Shown: piece after piece, positions 8,733 to 62,071 of the stretch | How the letters are laid out: each line of letters opens with the position of its first letter | How positions within the stretch are numbered: the stretch's first letter is position 1 | From: Narcine bancroftii | Taxonomy: Eukaryota | Direction: 5' to 3' | Length of the DNA stretch: 64,000 nt | Assembly (NCBI RefSeq): GCF_036971445.1 | Contig: NC_091477.1 | Coordinates: 4,836,001-4,900,000, forward strand | The notes under the pieces: model-generated | What the model saw: only the letters and a program-made list of their open reading frames with translations | The model's database searches: none | What the model was told of the DNA's origin: nothing | Position numbers and translations under genes: made by a program

Positions 8733-8820
8733 GCTTTAAGAAATGTCGATGTAGTTTGTTGAAAAGAACTGGGTGTGTCGCTGTGCACCAATAAGAATCG
8801 AAAAGGCAGGGATAGATCCA
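8733..8820 (+). promoter_or_regulatory. Clustered protocadherin promoter (CSE/CGCT element plus CCAAT)
   Basis: TGTCGCTGTGCACCAAT at 8776-8792, 256 bp before the ATG. GCTTTAAG at 8733, GATCCA at 8815. Confidence 0.85.
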
Positions 8821-9031
8821 TTTCCCGGCCCCTTCGACGTAGAAAGATCAGAAATGAGACGAAATGAGAACAATGCGCAGTTTTTACTTGGATGCCAGTT
8901 GAAAAAGATAACAACAATACAGTTATCTATTTAAAATATAAAAAAGAATACTACAATATTCTCGTAGAAGGCCATATCTCTGGATTTAATTGAGCTGTGG
9001 GTCGTATCGGGAAAGGATTTACTGCAGAACA

Positions 9032-11422
9032 ATGGCGAATTCGGCGATCAGCAACACCGCTGCTTTCCAAATCTTTGCGTTCCTAATTCTGGTATGTACA
9101 GAGCATTCAATTGCCGGGGAAATTCGGTATTCTATTCCCGAGGAAATGGAAGAAGGGGCTTTTGTCGGGAATGTCGCTCAAGATTTGGGATTGGAAATAC
9201 AGCAATTGTTTGATCGTAATTTTATGCTGACGTCTGATGACGGAGTAGATTATATTAATATTGAATTGCAGAGAGGGATATTATCCATTGCGAAAAAAAT
9301 CGACAGGGAGCAGATCTGCGGACAGGAAACAGCATGTACGATTTCCTTTAAAATCATATTGGAAAATCCTCTGGCGGTGTATCGCGGGGAAGTGGAGATT
9401 CTTGACGTGAATGATAATACCCCTACTTTCAGCGAGGGCACGATAGCTTTACAGATAGCGGAATCTATGGCACCGGGAGTTGGCTTCCCTCTAGAAAGTG
9501 CGCAAGATCAGGACGTTGGAATAAATGCAGTCGCTGCTTACACCATCAGTTCCAGTGCCTATTTCAGATTAAAGACACAAACATCTGACGACGGCGTGAT
9601 AGCTGTCGAGCTTCTGTTGGAGAAATCTTTGGACCGAGAGCTGAAATCATCCCTTCGGTTGGTTTTGACGGCGATCGATGGTGGGATCCCTCAGAGATCT
9701 GGCACAACACAGATTCTCATTACCGTAATGGACATCAATGATAATCCTCCTGTATTCGACCATAAAATATACCGAAGCAGCTTGAGAGAAAACGCGCCAC
9801 TTGGAAGCTTGGTGGTGACGGTCAAAGCTAATGACCTGGACGATGGGCCGAATGCTGATCTAACGTATTCCTTCAGCAAATTAACTTCACCAACATTGCG
9901 CGAAATGTTCAGTTGTGACCCCTATAGCGGAGAAATCCGAACCAATAGAAAGCTCGACTTCGAAAAATCTACCAGCTATTCACTCCACCTTCAAGCTGTG
10001 GACCATGGATCACCTGCAATTACGGGACACAGCCAGATCTTAGTCAAGATAATTGACGTTAATGATAACGCGCCCGAAATCAAAGTCACATCGACCACGT
10101 GCAAAATCATGGAAACCGTTTTGCCAGGAACTTTAATAACATTGGTCAATGTTATTGACCGTGATTCTGGTGAAAACGGGCAGATAAACTGCGAGGTGTC
10201 AGGGAGCATCCCCTTTAAACTTCAAACATCATCCAGCAATCACTATGAGTTGATTACGAGCGAGGAATTGGACAGAGAATCTGTCCCCGAGTATGAAGTA
10301 GTTCTAGTGGCCTGGGATTTTGGGTCGCCTTCATTATCGACAAATAAAACCATCCAGATCGTAATTACAGATGTAAATGATAATGCTCCTCTGTTTTCGG
10401 AACCCTCCTACAACATGTATTTGACGGAGAACAACGCTCCGGGGACTTCCATCTTCGCAATAACTGCCACGGATCCTGATATGGATCAGAATTCCTATGT
10501 TTCATATTCCCTCGTATGGAATAACATCCAAGACACGCGAATATCTAGCTTCCTCAGCATTAACGCATTGAATGGCACCATTTACGCGCTGCGCTCTTTT
10601 GACTACGAAAAACTCAAAACCTTCCAGATCCATGTTCAGGCCCGAGACGCTGGAGTTCCCCCATTGAGCAGCAGCGCTGCAGTGAATGTGATCATCTTGG
10701 ATCAAAATGACAACGCGCCTGTAATTGTTTCGCCTTCAGCGCAGAGTGGATCAGCATCTGCAGAGAGCCTGCCCCAGTCAGCGGATCAAGGCTACTTTGT
10801 CACCAAGATAATAGCAACTGATGCAGATTCTGGTCAGAACGCGCGGCTGTTTTATCAGGTTCACCATTCAACTGATCCCACCTTGTTCAACATTGAGCAA
10901 AACTCCGGTGAGATCAGAACTGCGCGCAGAATTTTCGAGTCCGACACCTCCATGCAAACTCTCGTCATCTTGGTGACAGACAACGGGCAGCCACGACTCT
11001 CCAGCACGGTTACAATTCACATTTCCTTTCAGGAGAACGTCACTGAAAGAATCACGGAAAGGAATAACTTGGTGTCGAATTCCGAATATGATTCTAATCT
11101 TCATCTTTATTTAATCGTCGTTTTCGGTTGCACTTCTCTTCTGTTCCTGGTGACCATCATTTTGTTGATTGGAATCAAATGTAAGCAAGAAGGAACTGTC
11201 ACCCAGGATCATAATTCCTCCAGTTGTTGCTACAGGCTTGGAGGTTCCAACGATGTGCTGGATCGGAGATATGGAACGGAGGAAACATTACGCTATCCTG
11301 GGACCGGCCGGATAGTTCGAGTGGGAGAAACACCGCATTACTCAGTCTGCCTCTCCCCAGAATCAGCGAAAAGTGATTTTCTCTTCCTGAAGCCGTGCGG
11401 TAGGCCCACCTCTCAGCCTTAA
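9032..11422 (+). CDS. Clustered protocadherin A1 (signal peptide, 6 cadherin repeats, TM, short tail; ~796 aa)
   Basis: ATG in CAATGGCG context at 9032 (the track's TTG start lies upstream). IRYSIPEE, EC1 Cys-X5-Cys (CGQETAC), repeated DRE/DxNDN/DxD motifs, TM (LYLIVVFG...), tail KSDFLFLKP. Confidence 0.95.
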   Translation: MANSAISNTAAFQIFAFLILVCTEHSIAGEIRYSIPEEMEEGAFVGNVAQDLGLEIQQLFDRNFMLTSDDGVDYINIELQRGILSIAKKIDREQICGQETACTISFKIILENPLAVYRGEVEILDVNDNTPTFSEGTIALQIAESMAPGVGFPLESAQDQDVGINAVAAYTISSSAYFRLKTQTSDDGVIAVELLLEKSLDRELKSSLRLVLTAIDGGIPQRSGTTQILITVMDINDNPPVFDHKIYRSSLRENAPLGSLVVTVKANDLDDGPNADLTYSFSKLTSPTLREMFSCDPYSGEIRTNRKLDFEKSTSYSLHLQAVDHGSPAITGHSQILVKIIDVNDNAPEIKVTSTTCKIMETVLPGTLITLVNVIDRDSGENGQINCEVSGSIPFKLQTSSSNHYELITSEELDRESVPEYEVVLVAWDFGSPSLSTNKTIQIVITDVNDNAPLFSEPSYNMYLTENNAPGTSIFAITATDPDMDQNSYVSYSLVWNNIQDTRISSFLSINALNGTIYALRSFDYEKLKTFQIHVQARDAGVPPLSSSAAVNVIILDQNDNAPVIVSPSAQSGSASAESLPQSADQGYFVTKIIATDADSGQNARLFYQVHHSTDPTLFNIEQNSGEIRTARRIFESDTSMQTLVILVTDNGQPRLSSTVTIHISFQENVTERITERNNLVSNSEYDSNLHLYLIVVFGCTSLLFLVTIILLIGIKCKQEGTVTQDHNSSSCCYRLGGSNDVLDRRYGTEETLRYPGTGRIVRVGETPHYSVCLSPESAKSDFLFLKPCGRPTSQP

Positions 11423-14008: not shown

Positions 14009-14009
14009 A

Positions 14010-14930: not shown

Positions 14931-15849
14931 ATATTCCACAAAAACGAGCTGGTACCTCATATTGTTATTGCCTAGCACACATTTGTATAAGTTAATGCGA
15001 AAGAAGTGAAAGGTGGGATGCTGCGCATGTATGTAGGCAATTCATCTGCAGAGGTACAGGGTAATTAGAAGAGAGGATGTGATGCACATCTGAGAAACGT
15101 TATAGTTCCGATGGCTTCCTGTACCGTTTTAGATTGGATCTGCAAAAATTGAAACTTCCAGACATGGAGCATTACACGATAAAACCGACTATAATTAGAA
15201 TAGTGTGTTGATACTAATCATTTGGTTTCACTTTTATTTCCCTTATTTTGAAATTTCGAAGTTGCACAACTGTAAATATAGCTATAACGTTGCATTGTAA
15301 TCCATATATTGCTGTCTTTGGTCATCAGAATGGAGCGTGATGAAACATTATCCTATTTATTGGCTACATTATTCGATTGTTTTCCAAATTAAATGAAGTT
15401 AATGTGAAAAGTTCGGAAATTAAATCTGTCAAAAATTCAAATCAGCATTTTTTCTGATGTTTCAAATGACGGTGTACAGGAAATTTAGTTATTAATAACA
15501 CATGAGAGTAGTCTTTTTCTGTTATCAAACAGCGACTTAATACATTGGGAAGAATGTTTCTCTTTACCCCTCAATACGATTATCTGACGTTGTGATAGCT
15601 GTTATCCGAAGTCGCTCGTCTGCCTTATTCCATTCAATTGAATGAACTATTAAAAAAAAAGTCATATTGCACCATGCATACGTTGGTTGGGAACATAATC
15701 TCTTTAATTTAAATTGTCCTCTCATCTAACATTCATGACTTCCAAAGATAGATGTTGCAAAATAAATCGATAACTAGATTTATCTAAGACTCCTTTATCG
15801 CCATACAATGGAGGAAAGTTTGGATTGACGATCTGTCGATCTCAATGGC

Positions 15850-15895
15850 GAAAAGAACTAGTTGTGTCGCTATGTACCAACGAGAATCGAAAACG
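15850..15895 (+). promoter_or_regulatory. Orphan protocadherin CSE with no exon behind it
   Basis: aaaagaactagttgTGTCGCTATGTACCAACgagaatcgaaaa closely matches the A1/A2 promoter. Downstream sequence matches the pseudogene leader at 24350-24475, then no cadherin coding sequence follows. Confidence 0.7.
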
Positions 15896-16888
15896 CTGAG
15901 AAAACATTAGAAATGACAATAATTACGCGTTCAGATCGTGAAGTCACGATGAGAAGAATAAAATCAAGTTTTCATGTATTTAACATGTCTATACTTTGTA
16001 GCATGTATTTTACAAAATACAGGTTTTCATTTTTAGAGATTAAGGATTTGGCCACACTAGACCTGAAGCCATCATGGACCAAACGAACTGCAGCCGTGAC
16101 GTTACAATATTCTGAAATGCCAAGGAAAACAATCCAAGGGAGAAACATTAAGATGAACAATCAAAGCTATTGTTGCGCCAGGATACAAAAACAATATGGA
16201 ATTAAAATGTTAAAGTCGGAAAGAATATATGATCTTAATGTAGCAAATAGTCCAAATGCAAAAATGCAGCTAATAATGTTAGATCTGCATATCCATATGC
16301 CTTATTGAATGAAAGATTATTATCGCAGTTCCAACTCAATCCTGATGCTCTTGAAAATTAATCCAGCACGTGTTATAACCTTATAAATGTCCCTAAATTA
16401 AGAATTCTGTCAAAATCTAAAAACCACAGATTCCTTCAAATTTACTGTACTCTCTCCGCATGACATCAGATAATTAATATTTACAGACTTTTATCTAACT
16501 TGATCGATATTCATCCAGTTCATAATATTGAATTTGGCTTACGGTCAACATTGTATATGTACTTGTGACACAAGTCAATTTGCAGCTAATACAGCAATTT
16601 GGTTATTGAATAGATCGTGACGAAAAACGGTCAAAGCCTTAGATTGCTGTGCCCAATGTTAGTCAAGAACGACCTTTACTCTATTGGCACCAGTAAATGA
16701 TAGAGTGTACACTCTGGCCGCTTTTTCTATTACTATGCTTTCCTCGTGGGTAAAGCACTGGTTCTCAGCTCAAGATATTCATCTGCCTGATTGCTGTTGA
16801 TTCCTGATTTTCAAAAGGAAGTCATATTTGAGACATTAAGGACGATGTTTTAAAATTGTACACTACGAAATATTCGCAGGACAGTCCA

Positions 16889-16975
16889 GCTTTAAGAAAT
16901 GTTGATGTAGTTGTTTAAAAGAACTGGGTGTGTCGCTGTGCACCAATAAGAATCGAAAAGAGGGAGATGGATCCA
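16889..16975 (+). promoter_or_regulatory. Clustered protocadherin promoter (CSE plus CCAAT)
   Basis: TGTCGCTGTGCACCAAT at 16931-16947. GCTTTAAG at 16889, GATCCA at 16970. Confidence 0.85.
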
Positions 16976-17187
16976 TTTCCCGCCCCATTCGCAACGAAAA
17001 AAAATCAGAATGGAGAAGAAACGGAACAATGCGCAGTTTTTACTTGGATGCCAGTTGAAAAAGATAACAACAATACAGTTATCTATTTAAAATATAAAAA
17101 AGAATACTACAATATTCTCGTAGAAGGCCATATCTCTGGATTTAATTGAGCTGTGGGTCGTATCGGGAAAGGATTTACTGCAGAACA

Positions 17188-19578
17188 ATGGCGAATTCGG
17201 CGATCAGCAACACCGCTGCTTTCCAAATCTTTGCGTTCCTAATTCTGGTATGTACAGAGCATTCAATTGCCGGGGAAATTCGGTATTCTATTCCCGAGGA
17301 AATGGAAGAAGGGGCTTTTGTCGGGAATGTCGCTCAAGATTTGGGATTGGAAATACAGCAATTGTATGATCGTAATTTTATGCTGACGTCTGATGACGGA
17401 GTAGATTATATTAATATTGAATTGCAGAGAGGGATATTATCCATTGCGAAAAAAATCGACAGGGAGCAGATCTGCGGACAGGAAACAGCATGTACGATTT
17501 CCTTTAAAATCATATTGGAAAATCCTCTGGCGGTGTATCGCGGGGAAGTGGAGATTCTTGACGTGAATGATAATACCCCTACTTTCAGCGAGGGCACGAT
17601 AGCTTTACAGATAGCGGAATCCATGGCACCGGGAGTTGGCTTCCCTCTAGAAAGTGCGCAAGATCAGGACGTTGGAATAAATGCAGTCGCTGCTTACACC
17701 ATCAGTTCCAGTGACTATTTCAGATTAAAGACACAAACATCTGACGACGGCGTGATAGCTGTCGAACTTCTGTTGGAGAAATCTTTGGACCGAGAGCAGA
17801 AATCATCCCTTCGGTTGGTTTTGACGGCGATCGATGGTGGGATCCCTCAGAGATCTGGCACAACACAGATTCTGATTACCGTAATGGACAACAATGATAA
17901 TCCTCCTGTATTCGACCATAAAATATACCGAAGCAGCTTGAGAGAAAACGCGCCACTTGGTAGCTTGGTGGTGACGGTCAAAGCTAATGACCTGGACGAT
18001 GGGCCGAATGCTGATCTAACATATTCCTTCAGCAAATTAACTTCACCAACATTGCGCGAAATGTTCAGTTGTGACCCCTATAGCGGAGAAATCCGAACCA
18101 ATAGAATGCTCGACTTCGAAAAATCTACCAGCTATTCACTCCACCTTCAAGCTGTGGACCATGGATCACCTGCAATTACGGGACACAGCCAGATCTTAGT
18201 CAAGATAATTGACGTTAATGATAACGCGCCCGAAATCAAAGTCACATCGACCACGTGCAAAATCATGGAAACCGTTTTGCCAGGAACTTTAATAACATTG
18301 GTCAATGTTATTGACCGTGATTCTGGTGAAAACGGGCAGATAAACTGCGAGGTGTCAAGGAGCATCCCCTTTAAACTTCAAACATCATCCAGCAATCACT
18401 ATGAGTTGATTACGAGCGAGGAATTGGACAGAGAATCTGTCCCCGAGTATGAAGTAGTTCTAGTGGCCTGGGATTTTGGGTCGCCTTCATTATCGACAAA
18501 TAAAACCATCCAGATCGTAATTACAGATGTAAATGATAATGCTCCTCTGTTTTCGGAACCCTCCTACAACATGTATTTGACGGAGAACAACGCTCCGGGG
18601 ACTTCCATCTTCGCAATAACTGCCACGGATCTTGATATGGATCAGAATTCCTATGTTTCATACTCCCTCTTATGGAATAACATCCAAGACACGCGAATAT
18701 CTAGCTTCCTCAGCATTAACGCATTGAATGGCACCATTTACGCGCTGCGCTCTTTTGACTACGAAAAACTCAAAACCTTCCAGATCCATGTTCAGGCCCG
18801 AGACGCTGGAGTTCCCCCATTGAGCAGCAGCGCTGCAGTGAATGTGATCATCTTGGATCAAAATGACAACGCGCCTGTAATTGTTTCGCCTTCAGCGCAG
18901 AGTGGATCAGCATCTGCAGAGAGCCTGCCCCAGTCAGCGGATCAAGGCTACTTTGTCACCAAGATAATAGCAACTGATGCAGATTCTGGTCAGAACGCGC
19001 GGCTGTTTTATCAGGTTCACCATTCAACTGATCCCACCTTGTTCAACATTGAGCAAAACTCCGGTGAGATCAGAACTGCGCGCAGAATTTTCGAGTCCGA
19101 CACCTCCATGCAAACTCTCGTCATCTTGGTGACAGACAACGGGCAGCCACGACTCTCCAGCACGGTTACAATTCACATTTCCTTTCAGGAGAACGTCACT
19201 GAAAGAATCACGGAAAGGAATAACTTGGTGTCGAATTCCGAATATGATTCTAATCTTCATCTTTATTTAATCGTCGTTTTCGGTTGCACTTCTCTTCTGT
19301 TCCTGGTGACCATCATTTTGTTGATTGGAATCAAATGTAAGCAAGAAGGAACTGTCACCCAGGATCATAATTCCTCCAGTTGTTGCTACAGGCTTGGAGG
19401 TTCCAACGATGTGCTGGATCGGAGATATGGAACGGAGGAAACATTACGCTATCCTGGGACCGGCCGGATAGTTCGAGTGGGAGAAACACCGCATTACTCA
19501 GTCTGCCTCTCCCCAGAATCAGCGAAAAGTGATTTTCTCTTCCTGAAGCCGTGCGGTAGGCCCACCTCTCAGCCTTAA
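17188..19578 (+). CDS. Clustered protocadherin A2, near-identical paralog of A1
   Basis: Same architecture as 9032-11422, with 8 amino-acid differences between the two translations. Confidence 0.95.
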   Translation: MANSAISNTAAFQIFAFLILVCTEHSIAGEIRYSIPEEMEEGAFVGNVAQDLGLEIQQLYDRNFMLTSDDGVDYINIELQRGILSIAKKIDREQICGQETACTISFKIILENPLAVYRGEVEILDVNDNTPTFSEGTIALQIAESMAPGVGFPLESAQDQDVGINAVAAYTISSSDYFRLKTQTSDDGVIAVELLLEKSLDREQKSSLRLVLTAIDGGIPQRSGTTQILITVMDNNDNPPVFDHKIYRSSLRENAPLGSLVVTVKANDLDDGPNADLTYSFSKLTSPTLREMFSCDPYSGEIRTNRMLDFEKSTSYSLHLQAVDHGSPAITGHSQILVKIIDVNDNAPEIKVTSTTCKIMETVLPGTLITLVNVIDRDSGENGQINCEVSRSIPFKLQTSSSNHYELITSEELDRESVPEYEVVLVAWDFGSPSLSTNKTIQIVITDVNDNAPLFSEPSYNMYLTENNAPGTSIFAITATDLDMDQNSYVSYSLLWNNIQDTRISSFLSINALNGTIYALRSFDYEKLKTFQIHVQARDAGVPPLSSSAAVNVIILDQNDNAPVIVSPSAQSGSASAESLPQSADQGYFVTKIIATDADSGQNARLFYQVHHSTDPTLFNIEQNSGEIRTARRIFESDTSMQTLVILVTDNGQPRLSSTVTIHISFQENVTERITERNNLVSNSEYDSNLHLYLIVVFGCTSLLFLVTIILLIGIKCKQEGTVTQDHNSSSCCYRLGGSNDVLDRRYGTEETLRYPGTGRIVRVGETPHYSVCLSPESAKSDFLFLKPCGRPTSQP

Positions 19579-23090: not shown

Positions 23091-25119
23091 TCCCTTTTAT
23101 TGAACATGGAATTAACTCCTGTAAATTCAAAATAATAATGTTGCAGCAAAGTTCAATCTCGCAATGCATGAGCATATGTTGCACCCTGACCTCTCCAACC
23201 AAGATGAGTTATATTTACGACCTTTCGATACGTGTGGTGAAATTCTTCTAACTGCCACAAGATGGCGCAGCGGTTAATACTGTTGGACCTCAGATCCAGG
23301 GACTTCGTTCGGTCCTGACCTTTGCGCTGGCCTTGTGGAAATTGCACATTGACTCCTCGATATTTTCATGCATGTCTCTTATAATGATCTTATAAATGAG
23401 CTGGTAACTTAAATTGCTATTGTCTATCACGCATTTGTGTAGGTGAATGCAAAATAAGGCGGAGGTGAGATGTTGCACATGTATGTAAGTGAATAATATA
23501 CAGACGCACAGGGGAATTAAAAGATGGGGTGTGTGTCTGATAACATTTCTCTATGGGACTCGTCATGTCCCCGATGATCTCCTGTATTATTAAGAAAATA
23601 ATTGAATCGGAAAGAATTAAACTTTTTGAGATAGAACTTTCTGTGATAGAAGCGACTATTATGAGAATGTTGAGCAGTTACTAATTATTTAGCTTCACAT
23701 CCTTTCTCTGTGTTCAAGTCGGTCAACGATAAACCTGGCCATATTAGTTGCATTCTAATCTATATATTGCTGTGTTTAGCCAACACAATGAAACGTGACG
23801 AAACATTTTGTAAATTATTGGCTATCATGTTCGATTCTTTTTCCAAATTAAATGAAGTAAACGTACAAATGTCTAGAGATTAAAACAGGCAAAATCCCAA
23901 GCAACATTGTTTTCCTGTTTAAAATGAGGTTGTACTTGAAAATGGGATCTGAATTACACACAAGAGTAGCCTCTTTCTGTGGTTAGCCAGTAATAAATAG
24001 GTTTGGAAGAATGCATATCTCCTTCATCCCCAATACAATAGTGATATTTGCCGTCTGTTCAATTGAATGAATTATTTTGGACAGAATTTACATCATGGGT
24101 ACGTTGGATGAGAAAATAATCTTTTTGATTATATTGTCCTCTAATCTGACAATCATGCTTTATGAAGATAGATGTTGCAACATAAATCGATTAATTTGGT
24201 TATCTATGACGGTTTTATCACCATCAACCTTTAAATATTTCAGAGGGCAGTTTAGACTTATGAAGTGTCAATGTCAGTGCTGAATAGAAATGATCGACTT
24301 GCACCAACGCAGTGATTGATCCTTTGCTTCTCTTTCTTCGCAGCAAAAAGATAGGAAACTATTATGAAGATACCAATTACGCGTTCAAATTGTGGAGTCA
24401 AAGCAAGAAGGATGGAAGTTGAGCATGTATTTATTCAAGATGTTAATACTTTCTGGCATATATTTTAGAATGACCCGTTTTCTGCACTAATACAGAAGAG
24501 TGGAAAATAATGCATTTAACAACAACGGCAAACCCGGAGAGTGACAACATATTTGCTTTCAAGAGGTATTCCCTAATGATTCTGGTACACATATCGGAAT
24601 TGAATTCCGGGAAAAATCATTAATCTATAACCGATGAGCTGGAGCAAGGTGCCTTTGTGGGCAACAACGTTCAAGATTTGAGACTGAATACTCCAAAATT
24701 ATCCAAGCGCAAATTTCGAGTAAACTGTGAGGACGGGGGAGAATACATGAAGGTTAACATGGATAATGGTAATTTGTCTCTTTGTGAAATAATCAACAGG
24801 GAGTCAGTCTGTGGACAAGTTAATTTGTGTACTATCCTTTCGAAATAGTCCTGAAAGTCCTTTGGAGATGTATCGCGGGGAAGTCGAGATTCTTCTTGAC
24901 AATTCCCCCACTTTCTTGACAATTTCCCCGCTTTCTCAGACAGTAATATCTTCTTACACAGATCCGAATCGATGCAGCAGGTATGTTATTCACTCTCGAG
25001 ACTGCAGAAGATCCAAATGTTGGAATAAATGCATCTGTGGCTTACACAATCAGTTACAATGTACTTTAGTCTAAAATCTGAGAGAACTGAGGACGGTGTG
25101 AAAATTGTTAAAATGCTGG

Positions 25120-26565
25120 ATGAGAATTGTTGTGGTCTGGTGCACTGATCTCTGTCTGGCCGAGGCCAGACAACAACATTCATATACCTCCTCTTATTTA
25201 TTCCTCCAACAGGTCCCCACGAAAACTCATCAAACCACTGTATTTGAACTCATTCCTTCCAGTCACCTCCCTGGCTCGGCTTTCACCATTGTTTTCCAAC
25301 ATCACACCTCCCACCTAAGATCCACAAACGCAATTGCCCTAGCAGACCCATCGTGTCTGTCTGGTTCTGACCCACCGAATTAGTCTTCGCTTACTTCGAC
25401 TTTATTTTGTCTGCCCTGATCCAGTCCCTCGCCATCGACACACGGTACACATGACATGCACTCCATCACTTCAAAAACGTCCAATTCCCTGAACTCGATC
25501 GATTCATGTTTACCATGAACATCCAATGCCTAGACACTTCCGTTTCCCATAATGAAGGACTCAAAGCCCTTCATGTCTTTCTGAGTAATAGCCCCAACCA
25601 GTCACCCTCCACCTACCATATTCCTCCAGTTGGAAAAACTTATCCTCACCTTCAATAATTTCTCCTTTGACTTATTGCACTTTCTCCATGTCCAATGGGG
25701 AGCCATGGGCACCCAGAAAGGTCCCAGCTATGCCTATCATTTTGCTGGCTACTGGAGCAATCCAGGCTACAAGTCTATACAGGAAAGGCCCCTCAACCTT
25801 TCATAGGCTACACCAATGACTACTTTGGTGCTGCCTCATGATGAGCTCGTTGACGTCATCCACTTTGTGGCTAGCTTTCAGCCTCCCCCTCAAATACACT
25901 TGGTCCATCTTTAGCAACACTATCCCTTTCCTTGATCTCTCTGTATCCATCTCGCGAGACAAACTATAGACAATCATCTCCACACCCATCAACTCTCACA
26001 GTTACCTCGACTACATGGTCCACTGTGAAGATTCCATTCCTTTCTCTCAATTCCTCCTACTCCGTCGCATTGTACCCAGGATGTGGACTTCCATGCCATA
26101 TCATAAGTGATGTCCTCCTTCATCCAACAGTTTTGTTTTCCCTCCACCACCATCTACTCGGCGCTCACCCACATATCCTTATTGCTCGCACCTCTGTGCT
26201 CGTCCCCTCTCTCCCCATGCACAACAAGGACATGAGTCCATATATCCGAACTCTCACCGTGTAATTATTTCATGAGGTTAAGTCAAAACACTCAGAAGTA
26301 GGATGAAAAATGATTTTTAAATATTTCTGTAAATTTTATGCATTTCGAATTACCGTAACATTTATGAATAATTTTATTGAGAATAGGTTCTTGAACTCAC
26401 CAGCCTCCGCATCAAAATATGTTCCTCTGAAATTTCCACTGCCTACCAGTGATTCCACCACAAGAGTCATGTTATTCTCTCCTACCCTCTCCACCTTTCA
26501 CCGGGACTGCTCCCTCAATGACACTCTTGTCCACTTCTCCCTCCCCACCAATCGTCCCCTTGGAA
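25120..26565 (+). mobile_element. Decayed Penelope-like element (RT region)
   Basis: RPIVS, MFTMNIQCLDTSVSHNEGL, GAMGTQKGPSYA and IPFSQFLLLRRI motifs are readable; C/T-rich coding strand. Confidence 0.85.
26254..26393 (+). repeat. ~140-bp direct copy of 28050-28188
   Basis: tcaccgtgtaattatttcatgaggttaag...attgagaatag.ttcttg is present at both sites with few differences. Confidence 0.95.
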
Positions 26566-27244
26566 TATAAACAATCATGATTATGTTGTCTTTGTAAATG
26601 TTAGCTCACCATCCATGGGTGCTACAATTTATAACGTGATTGCATTCGACCACTACCTGGACCAGAATGCAATCCTGGATCCTTTTCATCGAATATGAAA
26701 CAAAACTAGTTCTCAAGCTTTTTGTTACACATTGATTCATGGAATTTACATGAATTCAAATTTACGCATTGCACTCGTTTGACTAGAAGAAACGCAGGAA
26801 CGTCCAGTTCTATATGCCACCCAAGGAGGCTGTGCTTCCGCTAAGCAGAAGCGTTTCAGAGAATGTGATCATCCTGCATCAAATGACAAGGGTCCTGAAA
26901 TTATTTCGTCGTCATTGCAGAGTGAATCAGCAAGTGGTGGAACTTGGTCGTCAAGATAATGGCTACGATTTAGTTTCTGTTCAGAACGCAGGACTCTTTT
27001 TTTTTATCAACCGCAGAGATCAAGTAACCCCAGTTTATTGAGTGTGAACATAACTCCCGTGAAATTAGGATGAGAACTATATTGAAGCGAATACCAGCAC
27101 ACAAACTCTGATCGTTTTGGTAAAGGACCATTGGGAACGGAGCCTCTACAGCAGAGTTACAATATACATACAAAGTGGAGAATACAGCGTACACCATCAC
27201 TGAAAACAATAATCTAGTTCTAAATGGGGGAAAAATGAAGATAG

Positions 27245-29830: not shown

Positions 29831-30715
29831 GGTAGGCAAAAGCTTAAAATGATACAGACACTTCCAAAGTTGAATTTGAGCTTGTATACAATAGCAATCT
29901 GTGAGTTGTAAGTTTGTTGCACCAAAACATTACTTGTGTAGTTCTTGTCGCCTCGCAATAGAAATAAATTTAAAGTTGATAAGAGTGCAGAGATTCATCA
30001 GAATAGAGGGCAATATTGAGACTGGAGGGTTTGCGTTATGAAGAGAGATATTTTGGACAGAGTCTTTATTCAGTGAAGCTGAGTGCGGTGTTGACTCAAA
30101 GAAATACACGAGAGGCACATATAAAATAATTCTTCACAGTCATTCCCAATATTGATGATTGTAGAACTGGGGAAATGGTGGATGTGAGAATTTAGTAGCG
30201 ATCTGACGGGCAAAACCCTTATGCAGATGCTGGTATGCAAGTGAAATGAGCTCCCAGAGGAAGCTTAGGAAAAGAAAGAAAAATAAGGGTCAGAATGGGT
30301 TGGATCGATTTGGTTAAAATAAAATGAAGGCAAATAGGACTGGCCTAGAGTTCCAAATTGTTCGACATACAGAAATGATGCTAGGGCCCTTCCCTTCTAT
30401 ATGGCTCACTTGACGCCATAATGTCTCTTAAAGATGTTGGATTATGTTCCACATCTCTATCACACCGTCACTCGCAAACACTGCAAAAATCTATTGGATG
30501 TAACTTTAAACAAGCCCTATTAATATTAAGCATCAAGAAAAATGTTGAGAATTGCAATTATTAATTTAAATTATTTTGCAAGGGATTTCGGTGCATCTTT
30601 TTAAAAGATATCACCCCGATTTTATGAATAAAACAGGTATAATAGCTATGGTTCCGCATGTTCGAAAGGTCGGAATTTCAGTTGTCCACACAAATATTGA
30701 CTTTGGAGCAGTTTC

Positions 30716-30805
30716 GCTTTAAGAGCAGTTGCTGCAATTATTGGCTAGGGCTCATCGTGTCGCTGTCTACCAATGAGCAGATGAAGCATTGATGGAGATC
30801 TACCC
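30716..30805 (+). promoter_or_regulatory. Clustered protocadherin promoter (CSE plus CCAAT)
   Basis: TGTCGCTGTCTACCAAT at 30758-30774. GCTTTAAG at 30716, GATCTACCC at 30797. Confidence 0.85.
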
Positions 30806-31007
30806 CTCCAATTCAGTGAAACGCAGAGCAGAAGCGAAGAGAAAGACGATGTTTAGGTTTATGCTGTGCGGACATATTCAGCGAAGCTACTTAAGTTCGC
30901 TCTTTGTTTTCCCTATTTCCTCCAAGATATATTGATCAAATTACCAACGGGAGAAATGGTGATATTAACACCGGATTTTTATCCCTTTTAATTGGAAATC
31001 TGGAACA

Positions 31008-33338
31008 ATGGCGTTCGCAATTTGTTACTTTGTCCTGATATTTGCGTTGGACTCCGTCTCGGTGCAAATTCACTTTTCGATTCCCGAGGAGCAGGAGCGT
31101 GGCACCATTGTTGGGAATATCGCCGAGAGACTGGAACTCGACACTTGGGAATTATCAGCTCGGATACTTCGGCTGGTCCATGACGAAAGAAAGAAATATA
31201 TAGAGGTAAACCCGAATAACGGCATTGTATATGTGACTGAAGTAATTGACAGGGAAGAGATATGCAAGCAAAACCCTATCTGCATCCTTAGGTATCAAAT
31301 AACGCTCGACAGTCCATTTGAAATACACCCGATTTCAGTGGGGATACAAGATATAAATGATAATTCACCAGAATTTCCGAAGCCGGAAATATCCCTGCAG
31401 ATCAGCGAATTAATTGCGCCAGGGGCGCGCTTTCCTCTCGAGAGTGCATACGACCCAGACGTGGGGACAAACGCAATCACCATGTACCACATTAGTCCAA
31501 ACGAATACTTCGCTATCAAGATACAGACGAGAACGGACGGGAGCAAAAGTGCTCATCTGTTGTTGAAGAAATACTTAGACCGTGAGCAGCAGTCGACCTA
31601 TCAGTTGATACTGACGGCGATTGATGGCGGCATTCCTCGGAGGTCTGGCACGACTCAAATAAAGATAGCTGTGGCGGATGTCAACGATAACGCGCCTTTA
31701 TTTGACCATGACATTTATAAGGTGCGTGTAGTTGAAAATATTGCAGAAGGTAGCCTGGTCACCAAAATTAGTGCGACCGATTTGGATATAGGGGTGAACG
31801 CAGAGCTGACGTATTCTTTCACAAGTCACGTGCCGAATCATTTTCGCGACCTGTTCGAGATGGACCCGAAAACCGGCGAGATCAGAGTCGGTGGAGTATT
31901 GGACTTTGAAGAAATGAGTGTGTATGAACTCGATGTCGAAGCTGTGGACAGCGGTTTAGCCGGCATGACAGGAAATGCTAAAGTTGTAGTCGGATTAATA
32001 GATATGAATGACAACGCTCCTAAAATTGAGGTAACCTTGGTGACTGGCGAAGTGCGTGAGGACGCTCCTTTTGGAACAGTAATTGCAGTCATTAGTGTAA
32101 CAGATTTAGATTCTGGCGAATATGGAGAAGTACAATGTCAGGCCCCAGAGCATCTTCCTTTTAAACTTCTTAAGTCATCGAAGAACAACTATAAATTAGT
32201 CACCAATAATGTTTTGGATCGTGAAGACTTCCCGGCATACAACATCACTATTTCGGCCTGCGACGGTGGACTTCCTCCCCTTTCGACAAACAAAACTATG
32301 TTTATATCTATTTCTGATGTAAATGACAATGCCCCAAGGTTTACGCAATCTTTCTACAGTGCGTACCTGGCGGAGAACAATACGCCGGGCTCTTCCATAT
32401 TTGCTGTCACGGCTGTAGATCCGGATTTAAATCAGAACGGAGACGTTTCATACTCAATTGTAGAGAATCAAATGGAAGATGTTTCCGCATCTGTGCATGC
32501 CACTATTAACTCGAGAAGTGGCATCATTTACGCATTGTTCTCTTTTGACTATGAGGAAATGAAACATTTCCAAATCAAACTTAAAGCCCAGGATGCTGGG
32601 TCTCCTCCACTGAGCAGCACTGCCATTGTGAATTTTATTATCCTGGACCAAAATGACAACGCTCCCCTTATCATTGCGCCTTTAACATGGAACAGTACGG
32701 CAGTGGTGGAGATAGAGCCTCACTTGACATTTGCAGAGAATGTGATCACAAAAGTAATTGCAACAGATGCTGATTCCGGTCAGAACTCACGACTTTCGTA
32801 TCAACTGCTGGAAGCCAGTGATCCCAGTCTCTTTACCTTGGGATCTCTCTCTGGGGAAATACGAGCCACCCGAAGTTTAAGGAAGCACGACATCATTGCA
32901 GAGAGACTGGTTATCACTGTGAAAGACAGTGGACAGCCGAGCCTCTCTAGTACGGCCACAATCACATTTTCTATCTTGCCTAATGTCACTGACAAATCAA
33001 TTGAACAAACAGACAAGCCGAGATATTTCACGCAGTTTTCACCACTGAATCATTACTTAATTATCGTTTTCGGATCGTCGTCCTTGGTGTTTCTTGTAAT
33101 CATAATTTTCCTAGTTGTGCTGAAGATTAGACAAGACCCAGGACGATCAACAGTCTCGAATTTACATCCACGAAATGATATGTTAAATTATTCTGGAGTT
33201 CGTCAACACGATAGCTATCATTATACAATGTCCTTATCTCCAGAATCTTCGAAAAGCGATTTTTTGTTTCTCAAGCCGTGCCATCCCACTTTACCTTTCA
33301 TTGATTTGGATATCCGTGACACCAGTGCAGTGAAATAA
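31008..33338 (+). CDS. Clustered protocadherin B (776 aa)
   Basis: Intact ORF with signal peptide, CKQNPIC in EC1, six cadherin repeats, TM and KSDFLFLKP tail. Confidence 0.95.
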   Translation: MAFAICYFVLIFALDSVSVQIHFSIPEEQERGTIVGNIAERLELDTWELSARILRLVHDERKKYIEVNPNNGIVYVTEVIDREEICKQNPICILRYQITLDSPFEIHPISVGIQDINDNSPEFPKPEISLQISELIAPGARFPLESAYDPDVGTNAITMYHISPNEYFAIKIQTRTDGSKSAHLLLKKYLDREQQSTYQLILTAIDGGIPRRSGTTQIKIAVADVNDNAPLFDHDIYKVRVVENIAEGSLVTKISATDLDIGVNAELTYSFTSHVPNHFRDLFEMDPKTGEIRVGGVLDFEEMSVYELDVEAVDSGLAGMTGNAKVVVGLIDMNDNAPKIEVTLVTGEVREDAPFGTVIAVISVTDLDSGEYGEVQCQAPEHLPFKLLKSSKNNYKLVTNNVLDREDFPAYNITISACDGGLPPLSTNKTMFISISDVNDNAPRFTQSFYSAYLAENNTPGSSIFAVTAVDPDLNQNGDVSYSIVENQMEDVSASVHATINSRSGIIYALFSFDYEEMKHFQIKLKAQDAGSPPLSSTAIVNFIILDQNDNAPLIIAPLTWNSTAVVEIEPHLTFAENVITKVIATDADSGQNSRLSYQLLEASDPSLFTLGSLSGEIRATRSLRKHDIIAERLVITVKDSGQPSLSSTATITFSILPNVTDKSIEQTDKPRYFTQFSPLNHYLIIVFGSSSLVFLVIIIFLVVLKIRQDPGRSTVSNLHPRNDMLNYSGVRQHDSYHYTMSLSPESSKSDFLFLKPCHPTLPFIDLDIRDTSAVK

Positions 33339-35518
33339 TTCACATGCAACTTATGTTTGCTGGCTTCTTGTATATCTTACTGGATACACCTTTTGCATTC
33401 AGCCAAAGCATGAAACTGTTAGTGGAAAGAAAAGCGTTTTAGTTCTGTTTTACGATTATTGAATGCTTCTTTTAACCCTGCTAAACAATGCATGATGTAT
33501 TATGTTACTTTGAAACCCATACATACATAAACCGATCAATAGTTCAGAGCTAGGACGTGCTGATCAGTTGATGAGATCATATATTGTAAGATTTCACAGA
33601 ATGAAAACAACATGGATTTAAAATGCTTTGTTTTATCAATAAATGACGTAAGCGTTAGTATTTTCACGGAAAATACCTTTAATGGGAATGGTGTATACTT
33701 TTCAGACTGATCATCGTTAAAACTTTTATTATGAAGATTTACATTGAGATGAAGGATCCTCACCCAGTTGATTCAATTAGTCCTGGATAAACGAGGTTCT
33801 TGCAAAGTTTTGAGTGCTGGAAAAAGTTATGGTTTTGATAAAACAGGATCTTGTTCCTTCAATGTGGATTATCCACAACAAAGAGACTTCAATATGATTT
33901 GTGTATGGAGAAAAGAAGAGCTATAAATTGCGACCTTGACTTAATATTGCTTATCAATAATAATTAATTTCGCTCCGTCATTTTCCATGCAGGAACCCTG
34001 TGACGTTGGTTTACATTCTTGTCATCATCCGAATCATGTCGAATATATTTTGTCATTTTTGTTCAAGGCGTCTTGCGCTGCTCTTTAAAATGCAGATCCT
34101 GATACTGTAAATGTTGAAGGTTCTTCATCTACCGATGTTCGATAGATATTGGCATAAGCTCATAATAATCATTTGGGCATACTCAACGCAGAAAAAAAAA
34201 ACAACTACATCCATTCATTCACTTCAATTCCATCGCTGTCTCCATATGTCTCCCTTCATTACACTTTATCTTGCATATTCTCTTTCGGCATTTCCGAAAA
34301 TGGATTAAAATTATTTATGCGTTTGTTTATGTTATTCCACATTTCAGAATCAAGAAAACTAACATCAAAACAAAATTTATAGATGTATTTTCACCTTAAT
34401 TTACAATGTTCTGTTGGTCCGGAATTCACCTCTCCTTCTTAATGAGAGCAGAATGATGCTATCTTCTAACTACAGTGCAGGGAAATGGCGTAATATACCC
34501 CAGAGAATATGTTTAGTTGGGATAAACGAAATTAATTACCTTCGTTGGATTATAATTTCTGATAGCTATGAAGTACTGAACGTGGGATTAACGTTAATTT
34601 CATCGCAGCACTTGTGAACCTCCTTCAATCTGAACATAACCCTCAAAAATATTACAAAAAACAACTCATGTTTCATGGAACATTCTAGCACTCACAATGT
34701 ACTGACACATTTTACATCAGAACTGAAACAATTATGTTTCTGCTGAAACAAAAGAAAATAATTCTCTCTTTAATCCAACAAATGCTGAAGGAATTGATCA
34801 AAACATTGTCACTCATTCAATGTCCCCACTTCAAACACAACTCCATCAGCCTCAAAGATTGTGCAGACATTCAGACTGTAGGTTGAAGGAGAAGGTATTT
34901 CATAGAATCATATGGGACTTGACTAAAGTTATGTGAGGAGAAAGTTTAATTCTGAGATACTCCTGGGTTATTCAATAGGAATGAACATAACCCATCTATT
35001 TTTTTTCTCTATGGATTATTAAGTCTTTGGATCTCTCTCCGAGACATGGAGGGGAGATATAGATACACCACATAGAGTAATTAAGAGCATCAGTGGTCGG
35101 AATTCGCGTTACAATCTGATCAATTAAAATCTTAAAATATGAAGTAGGATCGAGAGGCCAGGATCATAGCACCTCCTCCAATTTCTTGTATTCCTGAGAC
35201 AAAAGTCGGGTCTCCAATACATTTCTGAATATTCGAACATCTGAAGGTACTGACATCTAATGCTGCAAGACTTAGTTACTGTTGTGTATACTTTGCGTTA
35301 TATCATGCACATGTGAGAAGTACTGTTCAGGTGACTCGGTGACAATAAATGTCGAAAGATATAAGCGTTTTGTTCAGGAAACACATAAGTTAGGCTTCTA
35401 TATTTTGTTACAACACATCTTCAAAGTGGATCTAAATCACTGTATTGTGTATTTCTATTTTGGGATTATAATTGCACACGTTTAAATAGAAGAAGAAAAA
35501 TATATTTGGAACAGTCTA

Positions 35519-35608: not shown

Positions 35609-35805
35609 CTTCCTTCGGCAGGAGACCGTGAGGAGCGGAAGGGAGTTAAGGTTCCGTTTGCGTTTAAGCCATGGTCTGAAACCTCCGGCTGCGTTTCTAT
35701 TTCCATGGATTTATTTCAGCATTCGACGGATTCCATTAATGCCAGACGTCATTGTTGTTGAGTGTTAAATATTTGGAATTTGATGAGAAATTCTATTCTC
35801 GAACA

Positions 35806-38202
35806 ATGGCGACTGCAACCAGCAGCGCGATGCGCTTTATTTGCATGCTCTTTGTGTCGGCCCACGTTGCGGGACAAATTCGCTACTCAATTCCAGAGGA
35901 GCTGGATCACGGGACTTTTGTTGGAAATATAGCCGAGGAGTTAAAAATTAAGATTCGGGAACTGTCATCTCGAAAGCTTCGCCTGATTCCTGATGTCACG
36001 AGAAAATATTTGGCGTTAAACCTACAAAGTGGGATTTTGTTTGTCAATGAAAGGATCGACAGGGATCAGCTTTGTGGCCAGAGCTCTTTCTGTTCTATTT
36101 CTTATAAAATTGCCCTCGATAACCCTCTGGAAATGCATAGTGTTGTCGTGGAAATAACGGATGTCAACGACAATTCACCGAGCTTTTCTAAATATGATTT
36201 TACTTTGCGGATTTCTGAGTTAATTGCTTCAGGAACACGCTTCCCGCTAGAGTCCGCACAAGATTCTGATGTGGGCACAAATACCATTAGCTCTTACCAG
36301 ATCAACCCAAATGAAAACTTCGATCTCAAAGTGCAGAAAAGAAGCAACGGGGATATAATTGCTGAATTGTCACTGAGGAAATCGTTAGACCGTGAGCAAC
36401 AGTCAACGTTTCATCTTGTACTTATGGCCGTTGATGGTGGGATTCCGCAGAGAACCGGCACTGCTCAACTCATTGTCAGTGTAGTAGACGTGAATGATAA
36501 TGTTCCTGTGTTCGACCATGAATTATACCGAGCTAAAATTCAGGAAAACGCTCTCAAAGGTACGTTAGTGACGCGAGTTAGTGCTGTTGATTTAGATGAA
36601 GGTACAAATGCTGAGTTAATCTATTCTTTCACGAGTCATACCTCACAAACGACTCAGGAATTGTTCAACGTAGACCTGGAAACAGGAGAGATCAGAGTTG
36701 AAGGAATACTAGATTTCGAACAGTGCAATATTTATGAGCTTGGTGTGGAAGCTATGGATAAAGGTCCATATGCACTTTCAGGGCACACGAAAATTATGGT
36801 TGAATTAATTGACTTGAATGATAATATCCCCGAGATACAGGTGACGTCCTTATCCAGTACAGTATCTGAGGATGCGCAGATTGGAACTGCATTAGCCGCA
36901 ATTAGTGTAAATGATCCGGATTCTGGTGAAAATGGGCATGTGCGGTGCGATGTTGATCGGAACCTTCCATTTAAGCTCCAGCAGGTTTTACTCAACAACT
37001 ATAATTTGGTGACTAAAGATACATTGGATCGTGAAACAGTTTCACAATATAACATTTCTATAATCGCCTCAGACAGAGGGACTCCGCCTCTTTCAACGCG
37101 TAAACACATTACAATCACTGTCTCCGACATAAATGATAACGCACCAAAATTTGCACAAGCCTCATACAACGTGTTTTTGACGGAGAACAACACACCCGGG
37201 GTTTCCATATTTGCTGTAACCGCTGTTGATACAGATTTGGATCCGAATGCAGAACTATCATATTCAGTCATGGATACTCAGATACAAGACGCATCACTAA
37301 CTTCATTTATTACAATTAACTCTGAGAGTGGAATCCTTTTCGCTGTGCGGTCGTTTGACTACGAAAAACTGAAGAAATTCGAGATTAAAGTACAAGCTCA
37401 AGATGCAGGATTCCCTAAGCTGAGCAGCACTACCATTGTGAACATTATTATTTTAGACCAAAACGATAATGCACCAGTTATCGCTTCACCTTTATTGAAG
37501 AACAATGCAGCATTCCTGGAGATTGAGCGCAGCCTACTCTATCCAGGATACTTGGTCACTAAGATAATCGCAACCGATGCGGATTCAGGGCAAAACATGC
37601 GGCTTTCCTTCCAAATTTCGGAGAGCACCTATCCGAATCTCTTCGATGTGGGTCTACAATCTGGGGAAATTAAGATTATCCGAAATTTTAATAATGAAGA
37701 CTCCGCCATTCAACAGATAGTCGTCCTGGTTAAGGATAACGGACAGCCGAGCCTTTCTTGCACGGCCACTCTCGTTGTATCAGTATTGGGTAATATCACT
37801 GAAAGAAATGTGCGTAAATTGCCACAAGCCGGAAAATTTAGCCAGTTTTCTGAACTGAATGTTTATTTAATTATCATATTTGGATCTACTTCATTCATTT
37901 TTCTTACCATCATAATTTTGCTGCTTGCACTAAAATGCAAGCAAAGTAGCGATGACAGCTTTGGAGAGAACAGATGTTGCCTTCCTTGCAGAAACCGGGC
38001 TTCGCGAAATCATTTTGATCGAGCAGCTGTTCGGCAAGAAATGGTAAATTGTAGTGGAGTAACTCCGACGCTTCCCATCACGGAAACCTATTATCATCCC
38101 TCGCGTGTATCTTCAGAATCTTTTAAAAGTGATTTTTTATTCCTACAACCAACAATGCCGGTAAATGATGGCCATGCTCGTAGTACAATAGTCAGAAAAT
38201 GA
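35806..38202 (+). CDS. Clustered protocadherin C (~798 aa)
   Basis: ATG in CAATGGCG context at 35806. QIRYSIPEE, CGQSSFC, six cadherin repeats, TM, KSDFLFLQP. Confidence 0.95.
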   Translation: MATATSSAMRFICMLFVSAHVAGQIRYSIPEELDHGTFVGNIAEELKIKIRELSSRKLRLIPDVTRKYLALNLQSGILFVNERIDRDQLCGQSSFCSISYKIALDNPLEMHSVVVEITDVNDNSPSFSKYDFTLRISELIASGTRFPLESAQDSDVGTNTISSYQINPNENFDLKVQKRSNGDIIAELSLRKSLDREQQSTFHLVLMAVDGGIPQRTGTAQLIVSVVDVNDNVPVFDHELYRAKIQENALKGTLVTRVSAVDLDEGTNAELIYSFTSHTSQTTQELFNVDLETGEIRVEGILDFEQCNIYELGVEAMDKGPYALSGHTKIMVELIDLNDNIPEIQVTSLSSTVSEDAQIGTALAAISVNDPDSGENGHVRCDVDRNLPFKLQQVLLNNYNLVTKDTLDRETVSQYNISIIASDRGTPPLSTRKHITITVSDINDNAPKFAQASYNVFLTENNTPGVSIFAVTAVDTDLDPNAELSYSVMDTQIQDASLTSFITINSESGILFAVRSFDYEKLKKFEIKVQAQDAGFPKLSSTTIVNIIILDQNDNAPVIASPLLKNNAAFLEIERSLLYPGYLVTKIIATDADSGQNMRLSFQISESTYPNLFDVGLQSGEIKIIRNFNNEDSAIQQIVVLVKDNGQPSLSCTATLVVSVLGNITERNVRKLPQAGKFSQFSELNVYLIIIFGSTSFIFLTIIILLLALKCKQSSDDSFGENRCCLPCRNRASRNHFDRAAVRQEMVNCSGVTPTLPITETYYHPSRVSSESFKSDFLFLQPTMPVNDGHARSTIVRK

Positions 38203-53962: not shown

Positions 53963-54029
53963 ATAAGTTGTATATGGAGAAAAATAATAAATTGACAAAA
54001 TCTATTTGTGCGCGCGTTCACTTTATTAA

Positions 54030-61081: not shown

Positions 61082-61112
61082 TGTAACTCCTGCATTTCCA
61101 GCAGAGGGCAGC
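61082..61112 (+). promoter_or_regulatory. Candidate forward CTCF site
   Basis: CCAGCAGAGGGCAGC at 61098-61112 matches the CTCF core consensus. TGTAACTCC lies 16 bp upstream, at the position of the upstream module. Confidence 0.55.
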
Positions 61113-61981
61113 TTCGTCTGCACAGAATGTGAATTGACCAGACAATTTGCCCACAAGTCAAAGAATGTAAAATGGTATTACTGCGTAATGAATTGAATCC
61201 AAACAACTCGGTCTAAAATTACGCACGGCCGTCATAGCTCTAAAATAAAATATAATTCTTTTATTTCCATTCTATCCTTACAAGATTTAGCATCCCCGAT
61301 GATATCGCCAGAGTAAAATTGAAGTCAAGATGATATTTTCCTTTCTCAACATTATGGATCTCCCTGTAGAATGAAGGAAAGGTGATGGCATTTTGGTGCT
61401 CGAATTCACTGCAATGATTCTCGCTTGTAGCATTTTTTCGAAAATCCATGTTGTGTTGAATCTGGGTTGAGATAGACAATATAATAAGAATGGTGATTTC
61501 TTCTCTTAATCCAACAAGAGGCCCGCAGCGCTTTTTAACTGCAAAAACATGAAAAATGCCTATTAATGAGTGCATGGATAAAAACGTATTTTCTTCATTT
61601 TTGGTGTTACAAATCCGATTCCCCTTACAAGTCTTATTAGAGTCTTGCCTCCAGTCGAGATTCCTTCATTCTTTAGAATTAAGCGGTGCATTCAGGTTAC
61701 AAGAAGCAGACCATCGCCGACTCTGCACATGGTGTTGTTTAGGAGCAAATGACTAGGTAAGCGTCAGTTGGAATTGTTGAATCTTTTTTGAAAGTATTTC
61801 TTTTTATAGATCTTTACAATTTTTTTCCCAAGCGATCGGTAGACTTTTCAATCAATCAGTGAGTAATAACGGACATACATAGTTTTCGAATTATGCGCTT
61901 TTCAGAAATGTATTTCAAAATCGGACGTAATTTTTCATTGAGCATTTTGGAATATTTGTGAAGTAAAATGTAAACGAGCAT

Positions 61982-62071
61982 GCTTTAAGACAAGCACTGT
62001 GCGGTCGTTGCTGCCTCCCATTGTGGCGTTCTCTACCAATAAGAAACGATGACGTCGCAAGGGATCTACCC
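61982..62071 (+). promoter_or_regulatory. Clustered protocadherin promoter with variant CSE (CGTT)
   Basis: TGGCGTTCTCTACCAAT at 62024-62040. GCTTTAAG at 61982, GATCTACCC at 62063. Confidence 0.8.

Follow-up and report, generated by a model that had tools for sequence, protein, structure and literature searches.

A conserved, probably composite promoter cassette upstream of clustered protocadherin exons in the ray Narcine bancroftii

Protocadherin exons and their shared promoter cassette

The window analysed here, a stretch of 64,000 nucleotides (nt) from the ray Narcine bancroftii (RefSeq assembly GCF_036971445.1; contig NC_091477.1, positions 4,836,001 to 4,900,000), was found to carry five intact protocadherin (Pcdh) exons, all on the + strand and each preceded by a promoter cassette of ~95 bp. 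Exons A1 (9032..11422) and A2 (17188..19578) each encode 796 amino acids (aa), B (31008..33338) encodes 776 aa and C (35806..38202) 798 aa, while D (62255..64000) runs off the end of the window with 582 aa visible. Relatives of the five open reading frames have a six-cadherin architecture, and the best named matches are chondrichthyan Pcdh proteins, including elephant-shark epsilon. The cassettes stand upstream of tandem variable exons of the clustered-Pcdh type.

Positions in the cassette are counted from the first T of the CGCT-box element TG(T/G)CG(C/T)T, located at 8776 (A1), 16931 (A2), 30758 (B), 35561 (C) and 62024 (D). The first-pass annotation had written this element with two bases between TG(T/G)CG(C/T)T and ACCAAT; the motif is present, but four bases separate the two parts and the literal pattern matches nothing. 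Its placement of GCTTTAAG at -43 (A1) or -42 (A2, B, C and D) and of GATC(T/C)A at +39 was confirmed in all five promoters, with matching coordinates.

In A1 (cassette at 8726..8820), CAGT..GCTTTAAG (8726-8740) is followed by TGTAGT (8750-8755), a 6-bp linker, the core of a predicted CTCF site (8768-8782), CCAAT (8788-8792) and GATCCA (8815-8820). The A2 cassette (16882..16985) consists of GCTTTAAG (16889-16896), TGTAGT (16906-16911), core (16923-16937), CCAAT (16943-16947), GATCCA (16970-16975) and a GC box, CCCGCCC, at +48. The B cassette (30709..30810) includes GCTTTAAG (30716-30723), TGCAAT (30733-30738), a reverse CCAAT (ATTGG, 30740-30744), core (30750-30764), CCAAT (30770-30774) and GATCTACCC (30797-30805), then a C-rich run, and the same arrangement is found in C (35512..35613), with GCTTTAAG at 35519-35526, TGCAGT at 35536-35541, ATTGG at 35543-35547, core at 35553-35567, CCAAT at 35573-35577 and GATCTACCC at 35600-35608, again followed by a C-rich run. 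Finally, D (61982..62076) carries GCTTTAAG (61982-61989), TGCGGT (62000-62005), a 4-bp linker, core (62016-62030), CCAAT (62036-62040) and GATCTACCC (62063-62071). All five cassettes are on the + strand.

On the + strand of the whole 64 kb, GCTTTAAG occurs only at these five places (starting at 8733, 16889, 30716, 35519 and 61982), with one occurrence on the - strand, at 32587. In A, B and C the box reaches further in the 5' direction and reads CAGTYYNGCTTTAAG. The CGCT of the central element is retained in A1, A2, B and C and is CGTT in D. CCAAT, in the form CCAAT(A/G)AG, starts at +12 in all five, 6 bp past the end of the core, and GATC(T/C)A is present at +39 in all five, in the longer form GATCTACCC in B, C and D. 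In B and C, a second, reverse CCAAT lies at -18, inside the upstream motif and linker of the predicted CTCF site, and is lacking in A1, A2 and D. C-rich runs follow the +39 box. The fixed spacing proposed in the first-pass annotation holds for the elements at -42, +12 and +39, with no net insertion or deletion over the 81 bp between the outer boxes in A2, B, C and D, but not for the TG(C/T)(A/G)(G/A)T module, which is found at -26, -25, -25, -25 and -24 in A1, A2, B, C and D, respectively. No TATA(A/T)A was found within -120..+130 of the five promoters.

The distance from zero to the ATG is 256, 257, 250, 245 and 231 bp (A1, A2, B, C and D, respectively), in agreement with the range first reported, and each ATG lies within CAATGGCG. 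A strong Kozak context has a purine at -3 and G at +4, and CAATGGCG is best read as such a context; a reading as a YY1 site was set aside, the Kozak reading being sufficient.

A scan of the window with a matrix of the core recovered no promoter copy beyond these five and one orphan described below (next-best scores 1.8 on the + strand and 8.7 on the - strand, versus 28-44). The ratio of observed to expected CpG was 0.69 for the window, 0.97-1.15 for the intact promoters, 1.21 for the orphan and 0.68 for the pseudogene. A scan for the neuron-restrictive silencer element, using a 17-mer and allowing at most 3 mismatches, gave one match at 6979 and none near the boxes. The stretch -47..-33 resembles, by eye, the consensus of a PAX paired-domain site, which is a lead at most.

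Conservation of the outer boxes

The proteins encoded by A1 and A2 are 99% identical and the remaining pairs 48-52% identical. Hence, although five intact genes share the module, as had been noted at first pass, they represent four independent lineages, not five. Four-fold synonymous sites among A, B, C and D are 28-38% identical pairwise, with 8 of 70 invariant, and synonymous sites across the four lineages are near saturation. A tree built with 17 of the 120 relatives listed places each of B, C and D beside different shark proteins, indicating that their duplications are older than the shark-ray split. Protein C shares 72% identity with a protein of Pristis and 67% with one of Rhinoraja. Among the named matches, which include no mu, nu or delta members, the closest from elephant shark are of the epsilon type (53-55%).

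Invariant columns were counted in ungapped register across A2, B, C and D, representing the four lineages. All 8 columns of the -42 box (-42..-35) and 5 of the 6 at +39..+44 are invariant, as are 14 of 21 at 0..+20. This compares with only 4 of 34 columns at -34..-1, 13 of 531 in the flanks and none among the 18 at +21..+38. Both outer motifs are thus conserved above chance and above neighbouring bases, as the first-pass annotation supposed. Its statement that the intervening DNA is otherwise diverged proved false for A1 and A2, and B and C are 73% identical over -55..+50. At the flank rate, the number of such runs expected over 600 positions is 8e-11 for the -42 box and 3e-5 for the +39 box; at the more cautious rate of the four-fold sites (8/70), it is 2e-5 and 0.06, and under this null the window by itself gives the +39 box only marginal significance. 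Against the 8 columns observed, 2000 shifted-register controls on a stretch of 90 columns gave no shared run longer than 3, or 4 when a tolerance of 2 bp was allowed. When -42 matrices were built leaving one box out, the held-out box ranked 4th, 6th, 3rd and 72nd of about 128,000 positions, and with the corresponding +39 matrices the boxes of B, C and D ranked joint first.

Substitutions separate A1 from A2 in 43 of 170 flank columns, against only 2 of 72 columns at -52..+19 and none of the 6 at +39..+44 (p = 8e-6), and the sole indel within this block falls in the flexible linker of the predicted CTCF site (5 versus 6 bp). Further downstream, their DNA is identical from +92 through the 5' leader to the ATG and into the exon (17023-19578 and 8867-11422), and 349 of 353 four-fold sites are alike, while the upstream flanks differ by 28%. 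The identity block has the features of a recent gene-conversion tract that ends short of the promoter. Similarity between A1 and A2 begins merely 164 bp upstream of the A1 core (from 8612), and just before this start is a 235-codon open frame (7859-8566) with no Pfam match, which is presumably retroelement-like; the native promoter of A1 may therefore be only about 160 bp long.

Two decayed promoter copies, at ~15865 and ~24255-24326, had been overlooked at first pass. The first (15815..15895, + strand, zero at 15865) is an orphan with no exon behind it, in which TGTCGCT is kept but the -42 box is reduced to GATTGACG (15823; 5 of 8 positions), the upstream motif matches at 2 of 10 positions, CCAAT is CCAAC and there is no +39 box. 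The orphan is about 1.07 kb upstream of the A2 core and stands at the end of a block (14464-15804) that is 68% identical to the DNA upstream of a pseudogene (22917-24224). This pseudogene is a Pcdh remnant (24525..27170, + strand) in which ACG replaces the ATG and 30-41 stops are present per frame in 2.7 kb. Its promoter, the second decayed copy (24243..24326, + strand), carries GACTTATG at 24255, CGACTTGCACCAAC at 24295 and GATCCT at 24318, and the distance between its -42 and +39 boxes is 63 bp, versus 81 bp in intact copies. In both dead copies, the -42 box matches at 5 of 8 positions and CCAAC stands for CCAAT.

Sequences from outside the window were sampled through short contig matches of public runs. 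One contig sequence that is absent from the window, and could not be placed, matches C at 36 of 42 positions over -25..+16. Its flanks, read by eye at loose ends, include GCTTGAAC at -43 and GATCCA at exactly +39, and these flank words are not found together in the window. The chance of the box matches is about 0.011 for the -43 box and about 5e-4 for GATCYA at the fixed +39 position, and the otherwise marginal +39 box is rescued by this copy. No coding match was found for it among the matches listed. A second out-of-window paralogue agrees with A2 at 22 of 24 positions of -51..-28, and its contig also shows a coding match, at the distance to be expected. For a further A-like paralogue, represented by 431 nt upstream of the ATG, there was no match on the A2 promoter at 80%; as the contigs of B, C and D gave no match there either, this negative carries no information. 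A run labelled as another organism yielded only short matches, none of which covers the promoter boxes, and a further run yielded none at 15600-17500.

As synonymous sites are near saturation, the dead copies have decayed and the unplaced copy has both boxes in register, selection on the boxes of the cassette is well supported by these comparisons.

A predicted CTCF site and the proposed working of the promoter

A CTCF site is described as a 10-bp upstream motif for zinc fingers (ZF) 9-11 that is joined by a linker (2-7 bp, mostly 5) to a TGG-like triplet and a core of 15 bp (PMC12885311). Spacings of 5 and 6 bp are given in bioRxiv 10.64898/2026.01.05.696797, and Module 1 lies 8 or 9 bp from Module 2 in bioRxiv 10.1101/2023.09.27.559875. 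With the core placed at -8..+6, this bipartite geometry puts the TG module at -25 or -26, and the linkers in A1, A2, B, C and D are 6, 5, 5, 5 and 4 bp. The upstream motif matched at 6, 6, 7, 7 and 5 of 10 positions. In the core, which was scored against an IUPAC consensus rather than a weight matrix, the 3' half matched well but the 5' half poorly. The TG module, presented at first pass as a separate module, fits both the position of the upstream ZF9-11 motif and 5-7 of its 10 bases (PMC12885311), and -26..+6 is likely to be one bipartite, possibly weak, CTCF site.

Most simply, the middle of the cassette would be the known conserved sequence element (CSE) of Pcdh promoters plus an equivalent of the SSE, the element already described just upstream of it in mammals, where its spacing is critical (PMC3333863). 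An SSE is adjacent to the CSE and gene-specific, whereas the -42 box is identical in five paralogues and stands 35 bp upstream of the CGCT element, and the gene-specific stretch at -34..-1 appears to be the better equivalent. Motifs for other factors near CTCF sites can cooperate or compete with CTCF (PMC13470930).

Two forward matches to the 15-mer consensus, at 61098-61112 (+ strand, 0 mismatches) and 23255-23269 (+ strand, 2 mismatches), were found about 0.9-1.0 kb upstream of the promoters of D and the pseudogene, and both are closer to the consensus than the CSEs. Within the intact exons, no CTCF site was found when up to 2 mismatches to this consensus were allowed.

Taken together, the sequence points, with a probability we put a little above even, to a TATA-less composite promoter of ~95 bp that is kept by selection and in which the boxes at -42, +12 and +39 would bind general activators that set the start and strength of transcription, not the choice of gene. 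CCAAT fits the NF-Y consensus. CTCF would be bound at -26..+6 and, given the degenerate 5' half of the core, would rely on the upstream motif, with NF-Y on the CCAAT at +12 and an Sp/KLF-type factor on the C-rich run at about +44..+54. As the -42 and +39 boxes are conserved beyond their neighbours and lie outside the bipartite CTCF site, additional factors could plausibly be bound at the GCTT(T/G)AA and GATC(T/C)A boxes, and transcription would start downstream of +45. Because the boxes are common to all five genes they cannot carry gene identity, and would instead make the promoters equal competitors; the choice of gene, as in mammals, would depend on whether the CpG of the CGCT box is methylated and on the loops that cohesin forms to a distant enhancer.

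Two of the public runs, both from one study, were treated as RNA, a label that is guessed, and the ends of their contigs show neither transcription starts nor strand. These contigs start at +77 in B (30835) and +128 in A (17059), downstream of all boxes. The B contig (30835-33885) matches the window with zero differences, and the run covering A has nothing at 15600-17058, a stretch that is covered by a DNA run. The action of NF-Y and Sp1 in human cells depends on position, being exerted from upstream of the core promoter and start, and has a periodicity of 10.5 bp that CTCF does not show; the cooperative order is NF-Y upstream of Sp1 (PMC11269187).

Several observations weigh against this composite promoter of general activators. 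The upstream motif matches at just 5-7 of 10 positions, and by chance 5 or more matches arise at a rate of 7%, 6 or more at 1.9% and 7 or more at 0.4%. The core matches the consensus, which resembles CCACCAG(G/A)GGGGGCC, at only 9, 9, 9, 11 and 9 of 15 positions, and the AG at core positions 6-7 is missing from all five, so that CTCF may bind weakly or not at all. Only three of the five gave a match to a clear GC-type box. The -42 matrix places D only 72nd, and the +39 matrix built from B, C and D misses A2 (rank 4651 of about 128,000), leaving only GATC(T/C)A as common to all +39 boxes. The linker columns of A1 and A2 are conserved too (2 of 27 differ; p = 0.047), and a short local conversion tract may thus add to the contrast between box and flank in this pair. 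The two dead copies have part of their changes in common and stand for about one dead lineage, and the orphan retains its CGCT core. The unplaced copy lies inside presumed-RNA contigs that reach 289 and 53 nt upstream of -25, and a start downstream of +45 does not fit that copy.

A rather unlikely alternative is an either-or switch, in which an ancestral engine made up of the -42 box, one or more CCAAT boxes and the +39 box would work independently of CTCF, CTCF and NF-Y would compete for overlapping DNA, and some subclusters would have dropped the CTCF part. The placement of CCAAT 6 bp past the core in all five, the reverse CCAAT inside the upstream motif and linker in B and C, and the weakness of the CTCF core are all consistent with sites so tightly overlaid that occupancy would be mutually exclusive. 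B and C would then be intermediates toward a posited CTCF-less twin-CCAAT type, and the boxes would name new Pcdh activators; the chance of this extended scheme is rated equally low. The reverse CCAAT is, however, present in only two of the five, the size of the NF-Y footprint is an assumed one, and no paper was found that ties NF-Y to clustered Pcdh promoters.

Somewhat less credence still was given to the proposal of the first-pass annotation that factors acting with CTCF in stochastic promoter choice bind the -42 and +39 boxes in helical phase. The absence of any net indel across 81 bp in A2, B, C and D, the critical spacing of SSE and CSE in mammals (PMC3333863) and the reported position of RAD21 about 40 bp downstream of CTCF, near the +39 box (bioRxiv 10.1101/2023.09.27.559875), are all compatible with it. 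However, the figure of about four helical turns for each box depends on the choice of zero. With distances taken between centres, the -42 box speaks for phasing, at 4.1 turns from CGCT and 5.0 from CCAAT, but the +39 box, at 3.5 and 2.6 turns, speaks against it, and the two boxes would lie on different faces of the DNA relative to CGCT. None of the copies carries a 10-bp variant of the spacing that could reveal phase. Mammalian linkers of 5, 10 and 15 bp all killed activity, an effect of distance and not of phase (PMC3333863), CTCF sites have no 10.5-bp preference relative to starts (PMC11269187), and common boxes cannot tell genes apart. A fixed distance is what the data establish; a helical phase is not.

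It is improbable that the boxes are core-promoter elements recognised by the general transcription machinery, with GCTTTAAG acting as a TATA-like sequence in sense or antisense orientation, GATC(T/C)A standing in for TATA some 30 to 40 bp before the start, or both. TTTAA is found at -40 or -41 in all five promoters, which have no TATA(A/T)A nearby, and a start near +70..+77 in B would place the +39 box about 30-38 bp upstream of it. However, GCTTGAAC in the unplaced copy is not TATA-like, and transcripts from a sense TATA at -40 would start within the CGCT box rather than near the contig starts, at +128 in A and +77 in B. That the motifs are functionless products of gene conversion or remnants of neutral duplication is very improbable, since, even though conversion has been active here (A1 and A2 beyond +92), the spacers are randomised across A2, B, C and D, synonymous sites are near saturation and the dead copies have decayed, yet the unplaced copy retains both boxes in register.

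The orphan could persist as an extra tandem CTCF site. At the 3' end of the exons, a likely splice donor, TG|GTAAAT, is found 2 nt past the stop of A1 (11422-11430) and A2 (19578-19586), and contigs of both presumed-RNA runs end exactly at this donor, by arithmetic from record lengths, which hints that A1 and A2 are spliced to a non-coding downstream exon. The B contig continues unspliced for 550 nt beyond the stop. At 16260, a DNA-run contig has a 22-nt insertion relative to the window, which is either allelic or a matter of assembly. Neither a Pcdh exon nor a promoter copy is present in the 24 kb that separate C from D. Inverted 5-kb copies sharing 85% identity (1-5006 and 47590-52631) carry a reverse-transcriptase remnant (PF00078; E 1e-15) and represent decayed elements of the long interspersed nuclear element (LINE) type.

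Comparison with known promoters

No description of the -42 and +39 boxes, or of NF-Y at clustered-Pcdh promoters, was found in the full-text literature searched; the elephant-shark, zebrafish and CTCF-structure primary papers and figures were outside reach. In the portions available, no promoter motif is given in PMC1852091, and there are no promoter probes in the part of the PMC7087399 supplement covered. How a clustered-Pcdh promoter is activated once CTCF and cohesin have brought the enhancer is poorly defined, and unnamed co-partners at mammalian Pcdh promoters are raised in the discussion of PMC3333863. Old ray paralogues are informative in this respect, as neutral sequence has largely been erased and constrained bases stand out. 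The result is two precise, mutable candidates of 6-15 bp outside the CTCF site, with natural controls in the two dead copies and the pair of 5- and 6-bp linkers. If it is true that CTCF-less promoters of the cluster share the boxes, the locus would separate activation from loop anchoring within one genome.

The CSE, or CGCT box, is known from clustered Pcdh promoters (PMC7811963, PMC4978886), and in human cells the SSE just upstream of it is essential and intolerant of insertions of 5, 10 and 15 bp (PMC3333863). As in the mammalian SSE-CSE promoters, the ray has one forward CGCT-type box per variable exon about 230-260 bp 5' of the ATG, with CpG kept, and a conserved stretch of constrained spacing just upstream of it. 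However, the mammalian SSE is about 20 bp long, adjoins the CSE and is gene-specific, whereas the outer box of the ray (-49..-35) is identical across paralogues and is accompanied by the shared +39 box. The 5' half of the CTCF core is also degenerate in the ray, the mammalian element being compared by description only.

As in bipartite CTCF sites, TG(C/T)(A/G)(G/A)T precedes the core slot by 4-6 bp, and the indel between A1 and A2 amounts to a change between 5- and 6-bp linkers. Unlike in such sites, the core matches at only 9-11 of 15 positions, and the -42 and +39 boxes fall outside the roughly 42-bp site. The NF-Y and Sp1 promoters without TATA (PMC11269187) likewise have CCAAT before a C-rich box, with the apparent 5' ends downstream of the two, but in the ray CCAAT adjoins a CTCF-type core, and all paralogues keep the same order and distances.

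Among other Pcdh clusters, a CGCT element is mentioned for the elephant shark (PMC2926608), which, like the ray, thus has a CGCT-type element in a chondrichthyan cluster. Unlike in the ray, the -42 and +39 boxes are not mentioned for elephant shark or Xenopus in the available text (PMC2926608, PMC4978886). A 13-bp extra motif in the frog gamma2 15-36 promoters (PMC4978886) provides a precedent for lineage-specific motifs, and, judged from its sequence, the ray cassette is a genuine extension, maintained by selection, of a promoter type already known.

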